DNA from: an uncultured bacterium
Lineage (GTDB): Bacteria; Hinthialibacterota; Hinthialibacteria; Hinthialibacterales; Hinthialibacteraceae
Direction: 5' to 3'
DNA: 24,785 bases
NCBI GenBank assembly: GCA_964516245.1
Contig: CAZEZQ010000002.1
Location: 1,678-26,462 of the forward strand
Part shown: piece after piece, positions 561 through 690 of the stretch
Numbering within the stretch: the stretch's first letter is position 1
Layout of the letters: the number at the start of each line of letters is the position of its first letter
The notes under the pieces: model-generated
Database searches by the model: none
What the model was told of the DNA's origin: nothing
What the model saw: the letters and a program-made list of their open reading frames with translations, nothing else
Translations under genes and position numbers: made by a program

Positions 561-690
561 AATGTCATTAACTTAAGGGATTTTGCTTTTAGGAGGGCGA
601 GGCTCCTGCCGAGCCGGAATCTCGTTCAAGCGGCTCATCAGGAGACTCCTCCAATTCAATATTTAATTTGATCTTACGTTAATTACATTA
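561..690. mobile_element. MITE-like non-autonomous element (~130 bp) bounded by 17-bp terminal inverted repeats AATGTCATTAACTTAAG / CTTACGTTAATTACATT; internal core related to the element at 12743-12898 but in opposite orientation
   Basis: Seen directly. The left TIR at 561-577 and right TIR at 674-690 match at 15 of 17 positions (17 of 20 if extended). The internal core 'GGAGGGCGAGGCTCCTGCCGAGCCGG...CGGCTCATCAGGAGA' is the reverse complement of the conserved core in the second copy at 12743-12898. Intergenic location; too small to encode a transposase. Confidence 0.5.

Follow-up and report, generated by a model that had tools for sequence, protein, structure and literature searches.

The mobile DNA elements most relevant to this work fall into two groups: the REP sequences, with their BIME and REPIN doublets, and the small non-coding transposons (MITEs) that carry IS4-family ends, with which belong MIC231, the IS231-derived mobile insertion cassettes of the Bacillus cereus group. 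REP doublets as a rule rely on a HUH/Y1 REP-associated tyrosine transposase (RAYT) encoded by a single-copy gene, and their inheritance is regarded as only vertical. REPs are in turn targets for certain insertion sequences (ISs), IS1397 and ISKpn1 in BIMEs and ISPpu9/10 in the REPs of Pseudomonas, which belong to the IS3 and IS110 families. The catalogued REP superfamilies are defined by a GTAG (or CGTC) tag (PMC3733652). Atypical hairpins flank class 3 TnpA_Y1 genes, an example being CCGAG-CCGC-GA-CC-GTAA-GG-GA-GCGG; these occur in Planctomycetes and Acidobacteria, with approximately 600 copies in Solibacter usitatus (PMC6006769).

The window, that is the whole 24.8-kb stretch of DNA analysed here, contains two elements bounded by terminal inverted repeats (TIRs). 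Copy 1 extends over positions 560-690 (131 bp) and copy 2 over 12743-12898 (156 bp), outermost bases included, with no ORF inside either. They are 12 kb apart in opposite orientations and align over the whole element with 77% column identity. Both are intergenic, copy 1 between the ORFs at 38-490 and 1000-1503 and copy 2 between those at 11219-12685 and 13236-14345. The two share an 18-bp TIR, (C/T)AATGTCATTAACTTAAG, short AT-rich segments next to the TIRs and a GC-rich core. The 17-mer AATGTCATTAACTTAAG is exact at 561-577 (+), 12744-12760 (+) and 12881-12897 (-) and has two mismatches at 673-689 (-); these four matches at up to three mismatches compare with 0.10 expected from shuffles. The first-pass annotation, which described two intergenic elements with near-identical TIRs and a common core in opposite orientations, is borne out on these points.

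In copy 1 the left TIR, TAATGTCATTAACTTAAG (560-577, +), aligns with the TIRs of the IS4-family ISs in contigs L089 and L008 discussed below. It is followed by an exact match to the unit pattern that defines the core, aGGAGGGCGAGGCTCCTGCCGAGCC (591-615, +), by a spacer of 16 nt (616-631), by a second unit that is degenerate and shortened, GGAGGAGTCTCCTGATGAGCC (632-652, -), and by the right TIR, TAATGTAATTAACGTAAG (673-690, -), with its two mismatches. The TIRs of copy 2 are 18 nt long and 100% complementary (CAATGTCATTAACTTAAG, 12743-12760, +, with its partner at 12881-12898, -). Between them lie a unit GGGAGGGCGAATCTCCTGATGAGCC (12782-12806, +), a spacer of 33 nt (12807-12839) and a unit GGGAGGGCGAGGCTCACGCCGAGCC (12840-12864, -), which departs from the pattern by one mismatch, in the loop. 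In both doublets one unit is of the AT/AT variant (GGAGGAGTCTCCTGATGAGCC and GGGAGGGCGAATCTCCTGATGAGCC, each containing the CUGAUGAG box considered below) and that on the opposite strand is GG/CC, variants being named after the bases closing the loop. The unit pattern GGAGGGCGANNCTCCNGNNGAGCC has three matches in the window, against 0 expected. The main difference between the copies is an indel in the central spacer; the lengths of 16 and 33 nt follow the unit boundaries defined here and correspond to 14 and about 37 nt as first counted. The conserved arms reported on either side of this spacer stand in modified form: the 5' arm of copy 1 (632-652, -) is the degenerate, shortened unit, and the arms are not simple complements of each other.

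Other repeats lie close to the two copies. A second MITE had been reported beside copy 1, and a palindromic, MITE-like element is indeed present at 705-887, 14 bp away. Its 30-nt outer arms (705-734 and 858-887) are 93% complementary and enclose 42-nt inner arms around CCCTCCCCAAGTTTGGGGAGGG. The inner module (CAACCC.CTCC.AACCTCCCCC...GGGGGAGG) recurs in a REP-doublet spacer at MAG locus L050 (2815-2935). A short GC hairpin, CCCCCCATTGAAATGGGGG(A)GG, at 12706-12735 is placed just 3' of the ORF at 11219-12685, abutting the left target-site duplication (TSD) of copy 2, and is possibly the terminator of that ORF; the Rfam search gave only a weak CRISPR-DR57 match for it (E=5.4).

What kind of element is this? 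We consider it very probable that each copy is a MITE with IS4-family ends, the interior of which is an inverted REP-like doublet. With respect to the ends, the TIR 17-mer exactly bounds a 1.55-kb IS in two viral contigs, L008 (430-1980) and L010. This IS encodes a 434-aa transposase that matches Pfam DDE_Tnp_1 and the NCBIfam model of the IS4 family, NF033592, at 188.8 bits (cutoff 115); a comparison of the L008 IS with the plasmid collection gave no match. A complete 1.47-kb IS in a metagenome contig (L089, 2255-3727) has TIRs CAATGTCATTAAGTTAAG, identical to the window TIR at 17 of 18 positions, and a 387-aa transposase scoring 154.4 bits against NF033592. The 18-nt TIRs of the window are therefore identical, or identical at 17/18 positions, to those of ISs encoding NF033592 transposases. 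The L008 and L089 transposases are only 23% identical yet their TIRs can be aligned with the window TIRs position by position, which marks the TIR as a conserved feature of an IS4 subgroup.

TSDs of 10-11 bp, within the 9-12 bp typical of the family, flank copy 2 and the elements in L045, L103, L039 and L089. Those of copy 2, read from the sequence, are GGTTAAGAGG (12733-12742) and GTTTAGGAGG (12899-12908), identical at 8/10 positions, an agreement that by our own binomial estimate would arise by chance with a probability of about 4e-4. No TSD around copy 1 is convincing, the flanks agreeing at 4/10 positions in register. Beyond the window, TIRs together with the same core are found at L045, where an 11-bp TSD agrees at 9/11 positions, and in the metagenome contig L103, with a 10-bp TSD at 8/10; L041 holds a half-copy with the left TIR only. 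Homologous TIR-plus-core relatives thus exist in two other sources, a genome MAG (L045, L041) and a metagenome contig. A further element, L039 (5374-5517), has the same TIRs around an unrelated interior and a perfect 10-bp TSD, AGGCGAAGCC. That the TIRs bound a family of mobile elements, as the first-pass annotation proposed, is upheld by these copies. The core-bearing copies are homologous across the AT-rich left subterminal segment as well as the core, and since that segment runs from the left TIR to the core it indicates that TIRs and core have moved as one unit. A strict TIR-plus-core pattern gave no matches in the JGI metagenomes, so the MITE family is rare in public data.

A profile scan of the 20 largest ORFs in the window gave no transposase-family match, and look-ups of the exact proteins of three window ORFs gave no record. 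Movement would depend on a DDE transposase of the IS4 family binding both TIRs in trans, with insertion duplicating some 10-11 bp of target; cut-and-paste transposition is what membership of the IS4 family would predict. That the window elements are mobilised, and which transposases would act in the source genome, we infer.

The units that make up the core are far more widespread than the MITE. The 24-nt core of the AT/AT unit of copy 2, GGAGGGCGAATCTCCTGATGAGCC, is exact in 104 metagenome stretches and at many loci of a genome scan, and 17 viral contigs contain the 3' arm GGCTCGGCRGGAGCCTCGCCCTCC, either by itself or in inverted pairs. The genome scan, designed around the asymmetric pair, gave 24 loci from about 13 MAGs, a few of which have no more of the unit than this pair and appear fortuitous; the MAG labels include Armatimonadota, Planctomycetota and Tepidisphaeraceae. 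At these loci the arms are near-identical, the spacers differ and nearly all lack TIRs. The scan returned the core of neither window copy, although both satisfy its pattern. Taken together, the units are present in MAGs and metagenomes labelled as several phyla, mostly without TIRs. They are intergenic, in either orientation, beside unrelated housekeeping genes, and among the 25 families listed by a Pfam survey of 150 ORFs near units there was no partner gene in common. A full-text literature search with the core DNA and six-frame peptides found no papers.

Four arrangements are seen: singlets, head-to-head doublets of the type present in the window (spacer 9-70 nt), tail-to-tail doublets (24-nt spacer) and direct arrays. 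There are 61 distinct tail-to-tail doublets, most from the metagenome series Ga0172368-71, in which they sit inside a palindromic element of about 150 nt. The two arms of a doublet are usually different variants, AT/AT being combined with GG/CC. In the L050 doublet the spacer carries a 262-nt insertion, and a palindromic element sits there. The many dispersed extragenic copies expected of REPs, inverted doublets included, are accordingly documented for organisms other than that of the source genome.

Several observations on these loci merit record. The palindromic element of series Ga0172368-71, which we term family A (L070-L171, e.g. L075 and L086), is a high-copy element on more than 50 contigs with the consensus AGCCGCCTAACCGAGAAATTCGGCGATGGCGGAAAGAAAAAGG...GGCTCGGCGGGAGCCTCGCCCTCCC-TTCTTGTTCGAAGGTGAATTGCG-GGGAGGGCGAATCTCCTGATGAGCC-AGCCTGCTTTCTGTTTTCTTAGGAG, and it often adjoins other repeats, the GTAG-tagged GCAGGCGTCCCGCCTGC and CAAGGGCAAAAACAACTTTTGCCCTTGCCACCC. 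In a high-GC viral contig (L021, 5049-7833) two perfect REP doublets, each adjoining an inverted repeat of about 30 nt, caaatccggtcaatctgcgggaatgaaacgg, bracket a 2.6-kb segment; the two ORFs scanned between them had no Pfam or family match. At four loci of MAG CAZSIZ (L032, L036, L038 and L043) the head-to-head spacers resemble a tRNA T-arm (GGTTCGAYTCC), which may be coincidence.

Two copies of a 25-nt REP-like unit, nGGAG-GGC-GA-NN-CTCCYG-NN-GA-GCC, placed head to head, make up the core. A 5' foot, nGGAG, is followed by GGC, a tandem G-A, two covarying base pairs, the hexaloop CTCCYG, the other strand of the two pairs, G-A and GCC. The foot is more than 90% conserved and carries neither GTAG nor CGTC. 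We tested the hairpin (G6G7C8 - G9A10 - N11N12 - hexaloop - N19N20 - G21A22 - G23C24C25) on 74 distinct unit sequences. Double changes fill 49 cells, compared to 16.3 +/- 2.9 in shuffles, none of 500 shuffles scoring as high, and the proportion of paired cells is 89.5%, far above the 13-40% of controls in which the partner was slid. At C8:G23 a switch to U:A is seen too. The loop-closing pairs occur as GG/CC, AT/AT, AC/GT, CG/CG, AG/CT, GC/GC and GT/AC, seven fully Watson-Crick types over the 261 distinct instances from all retrieved loci. The retrieval patterns fixed parts of the unit and the variant frequencies are biased by this; the covarying positions were left free in the search of viral contigs (GGAGGGCGA NN CTCCYG NN GAGCC), which returned the complementary combinations GG/CC, CG/CG, AG/CT and GC/GC, non-complementary ones being limited to a few singletons. 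A hairpin GGCTC/GAGCC within the arm, which had been assumed at first, shows zero double changes and was replaced by GGC-GA-NN...NN-GA-GCC. The unit is thus a short imperfect palindrome with a covarying hairpin of its own, as in REPs.

Might the two arms instead form one long hairpin, as RNA or cruciform DNA, that terminates transcription, stabilises mRNA 3' ends or is bound by protein as a palindrome, with the TIRs incidental? REP/BIME elements do stabilise mRNA, copies of the core lie downstream of genes, and the arms are largely complementary (27-nt arms, 78%); CCG/CGG beside the spacer often lengthens the stem and some spacers pair further. The variants in a doublet are, however, mostly different, so that an arm-to-arm stem is mismatched exactly where the hairpin of each arm is kept. 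Moreover singlets, tail-to-tail pairs and direct arrays of units exist as well, the hairpin is not followed by a T-run, and the TIRs are hardly incidental when they match the ends of real ISs and are flanked by TSDs. As the explanation of the element this is improbable, and it is better regarded as compatible with a secondary role in the host than as a true alternative to the MITE with a REP-like doublet. Any such role of the hairpins, in mRNA 3'-end protection or termination, is putative. The same data settle in part the first-pass suggestion of selection on a stem-loop: the conserved core does contain selected stem-loops, but as one small hairpin per arm, not as one extended stem around a loop of changing length. 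What looked like that loop is the spacer that separates two units.

A further alternative is that the MITE has an RNA as its cargo, either a self-cleaving ribozyme of hammerhead or hammerhead-like type or some other small structured RNA; the first-pass annotation had noted the hammerhead box CUGAUGAG in the core, could not fold a complete hammerhead around it and suggested that the family may carry a small RNA. In favour of an RNA, the box is conserved in many loci, folding is more stable than that of shuffled sequences (z = -3.7 to -5.5) and the hairpin covaries. Of the parts of a hammerhead, however, there is no more than the CUGAUGA box and a GC stem. What follows the supposed stem II (GCCG...CGGC) is UCGGCRGGAG and not GAAA; in the type-II permutation the gap from CGAA to CUGAUGA is UCUC only and position 17 would be G; and there is neither a UH cleavage site nor a three-way junction. 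Neither the window copies nor the longer family A consensus could be folded by hand into a hammerhead of type I, II or III. Searches of Rfam, hammerhead models included, over the whole window at the gathering score and around both copies at E<=10 gave only spurious miRNA-type hairpin matches. The box is the AU/AU covariant of the two loop-closing pairs, positions occupied in other copies by GG/CC, CG/CG, AC/GT or a further type; read as AU-CUCCUG-AU-GAG, it is a by-product of the AT/AT unit variant. Both strands fold equally well and the orientation of the core with respect to flanking genes shows no bias: among unambiguous cases family A doublets are 10 (+,+) to 6 (-,-) relative to flanking ORFs, head-to-head doublets 3-4 to 6. 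G:T wobbles, in our own reading of the table of unit instances, are equal on the two strands (4 vs 4). A core found in either orientation with equal wobbles points to a repeat at the level of DNA, not to an RNA gene. We therefore regard an RNA cargo as highly improbable, and conclude that the core is a pair of REP-like DNA hairpins, neither hammerhead ribozyme nor small-RNA gene.

Finally, that the two copies are the remnant of a local duplication, or similar by chance, has a negligible likelihood: only two are visible in the 24.8-kb window, but they are inverted, 12 kb apart and have a TIR pair each, copy 2 with its own TSD, against chance expectations of 0.10 for the TIR and 0 for the unit, and the homologous TIR-plus-core elements in the MAG and the metagenome contig already refute it. 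The first-pass annotation would itself have fallen back on this reading had there been neither further copies nor covariation; copies elsewhere and covariation of the unit were both found.

If the interior of the MITE is a REP-like doublet, then a RAYT might be expected in association with such units. Among the ORFs situated between neighbouring units, one in contig L072 (886-1368, -) matches Pfam Y1_Tnp and scores 95.8 bits (cutoff 80) against the NCBIfam model of a 'REP-associated tyrosine transposase', NF047646. An ORF in L164 scores identically, and since that contig appears to overlap the L072 region we count one gene; the link to a RAYT is through this one gene, in two apparently overlapping contigs of an organism other than that of the source genome. 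The gene is flanked by units at 813-837, 1347-1370, 1454-1478 and 1618-1641, the last an exact AT/AT variant, and these alternate with a second type of hairpin with a GGAG foot, GGAGGGTCGTGCTCCTGCACGACC. The protein has the motifs of class 2: a HUH motif DHIH (HIH), WQ and a Y motif YVRNNP. A scan of ORFs for HUH/Y1 proteins with the motif NH[VILY]H gave no matches; it was too strict for this RAYT, which has DHIH and was reached via Pfam.

The window also holds three copies of a 68-nt repeat, at 2212-2279, 2300-2367 and 16749-16816, with 65-72% identity to the reference copy. It comprises GGAGC and a hairpin, GCAGGCG-TCC-CGCCTGC, then a second hairpin of (A)TAG type. This design, a GGAG foot with a hairpin, is that of the second unit type around the L072 RAYT, and the repeat is probably another REP-like family in the source genome.

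How might a REP-like doublet come to lie in an IS4-type MITE? REP-type units would be recognised as single-stranded DNA hairpins by a RAYT, with the inverted doublets being REPIN- or BIME-like. The interior doublet could have arisen in a RAYT-bearing genome and later come to lie between IS4 ends, possibly because it inserted into an IS copy or because such a copy suffered a deletion. The L089 IS bears on this, since its insertion point, flanked by a perfect 10-bp TSD AGCCTCGCCC, is inside a REP-like unit, showing that IS4-type and REP-type elements do meet. This single case may hint at REP targeting of the kind known for IS1397 or ISPpu9.

The elements form a family that is new but belongs to known kinds of mobile DNA, and just one feature is mildly unusual, the packaging of a REP doublet in a DDE-type MITE. 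A more ambitious proposal, which we put forward as doubtful, is that packaging in an IS4-type MITE provides REP doublets with a second, horizontally more mobile means of transport and that the unit with the GGAG foot and GA loop represents an uncatalogued REP superfamily crossing phyla. Were it true, the packaging could explain why near-identical 25-nt units occur under several phylum labels and why a GC-rich unit is present in a 41%-GC genome. Transfer of REP doublets between genomes by MITEs would also bear on the view that inheritance of REPINs and RAYTs is strictly vertical. Apart from this proposal, the analysis defines a REP-like unit (GGAG foot, tandem G-A loop, CTCCYG hexaloop) outside the Proteobacteria, where REPs and RAYTs have mostly been studied. 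It documents physical interplay of two classes of mobile DNA, an IS4-family IS in a unit and an IS4-type MITE carrying a unit doublet. It also removes a false lead, the hammerhead box in a mobile element, a motif that can arise via covariation of a DNA hairpin.

In comparison with known systems, the window elements share with IS4-family MITEs and MIC231 a short, non-coding or passenger-carrying body, IS4-family TIRs, putative mobilisation in trans and TSDs of some 10-12 bp. The TIR of IS231 (CATGCCCATCAACTTAAGAA) resembles CAATGTCATTAACTTAAGAA; the link to IS231 is putative. They differ from MIC231 in host and IS4 subgroup, and the passenger here is a REP doublet, not a gene. The REP-targeting ISs find a parallel in the L089 IS inside a unit and in the palindromic element in the spacer of the L050 doublet; they differ in being of the IS3 and IS110 families, as opposed to IS4 and a single insertion here. 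The resemblance to the hammerhead is confined to CUGAUGAG followed by a GC stem, with no GAAA box, UH site, three-stem junction or covariance-model match.

The hairpins of class 3 TnpA_Y1 (Quentin et al. 2018, PMC6006769, Table S1) are similar to the unit in having a foot ending in GAG and in the succession of stem, GA-GA 2x2 internal loop, two base pairs and small loop. The primary sequence is different, and a tetraloop takes the place of our hexaloop. A link with class 3 proteins, which have NHVH and YV..EQ / Y----Q, was considered and set aside, the L072 protein being of class 2; the likeness is one of architecture only.

The closest match is with the REP/BIME/REPIN and RAYT systems. Like REPs, which are imperfect palindromes of 20-40 nt with a conserved unpaired 5' foot (PMC3733652, PMC3337134), the units are dispersed between genes as singlets, head-to-head and tail-to-tail dimers and arrays. 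Doublets pair two unit variants, as do the Y and Z units of E. coli BIMEs, and the spacer is less conserved than the arms. The RAYT gene embedded among units in L072 gives a REPtron- or BIME-like arrangement such as those already described (PMC3733652, PMC3337134, PMC6006769). On the other hand the foot reads GGAG where catalogued REPs have GTAG or CGTC, a tandem G-A internal loop and a conserved hexaloop mark the hairpin, and the window doublets lie inside a DDE-type MITE. REPINs have been described as lineage-specific and vertically inherited, whereas these units are near-identical in MAGs labelled as several phyla. Judged by its sequence under the classification of PMC3733652, the unit would be placed as an 'untagged' or differently tagged REP-like family.
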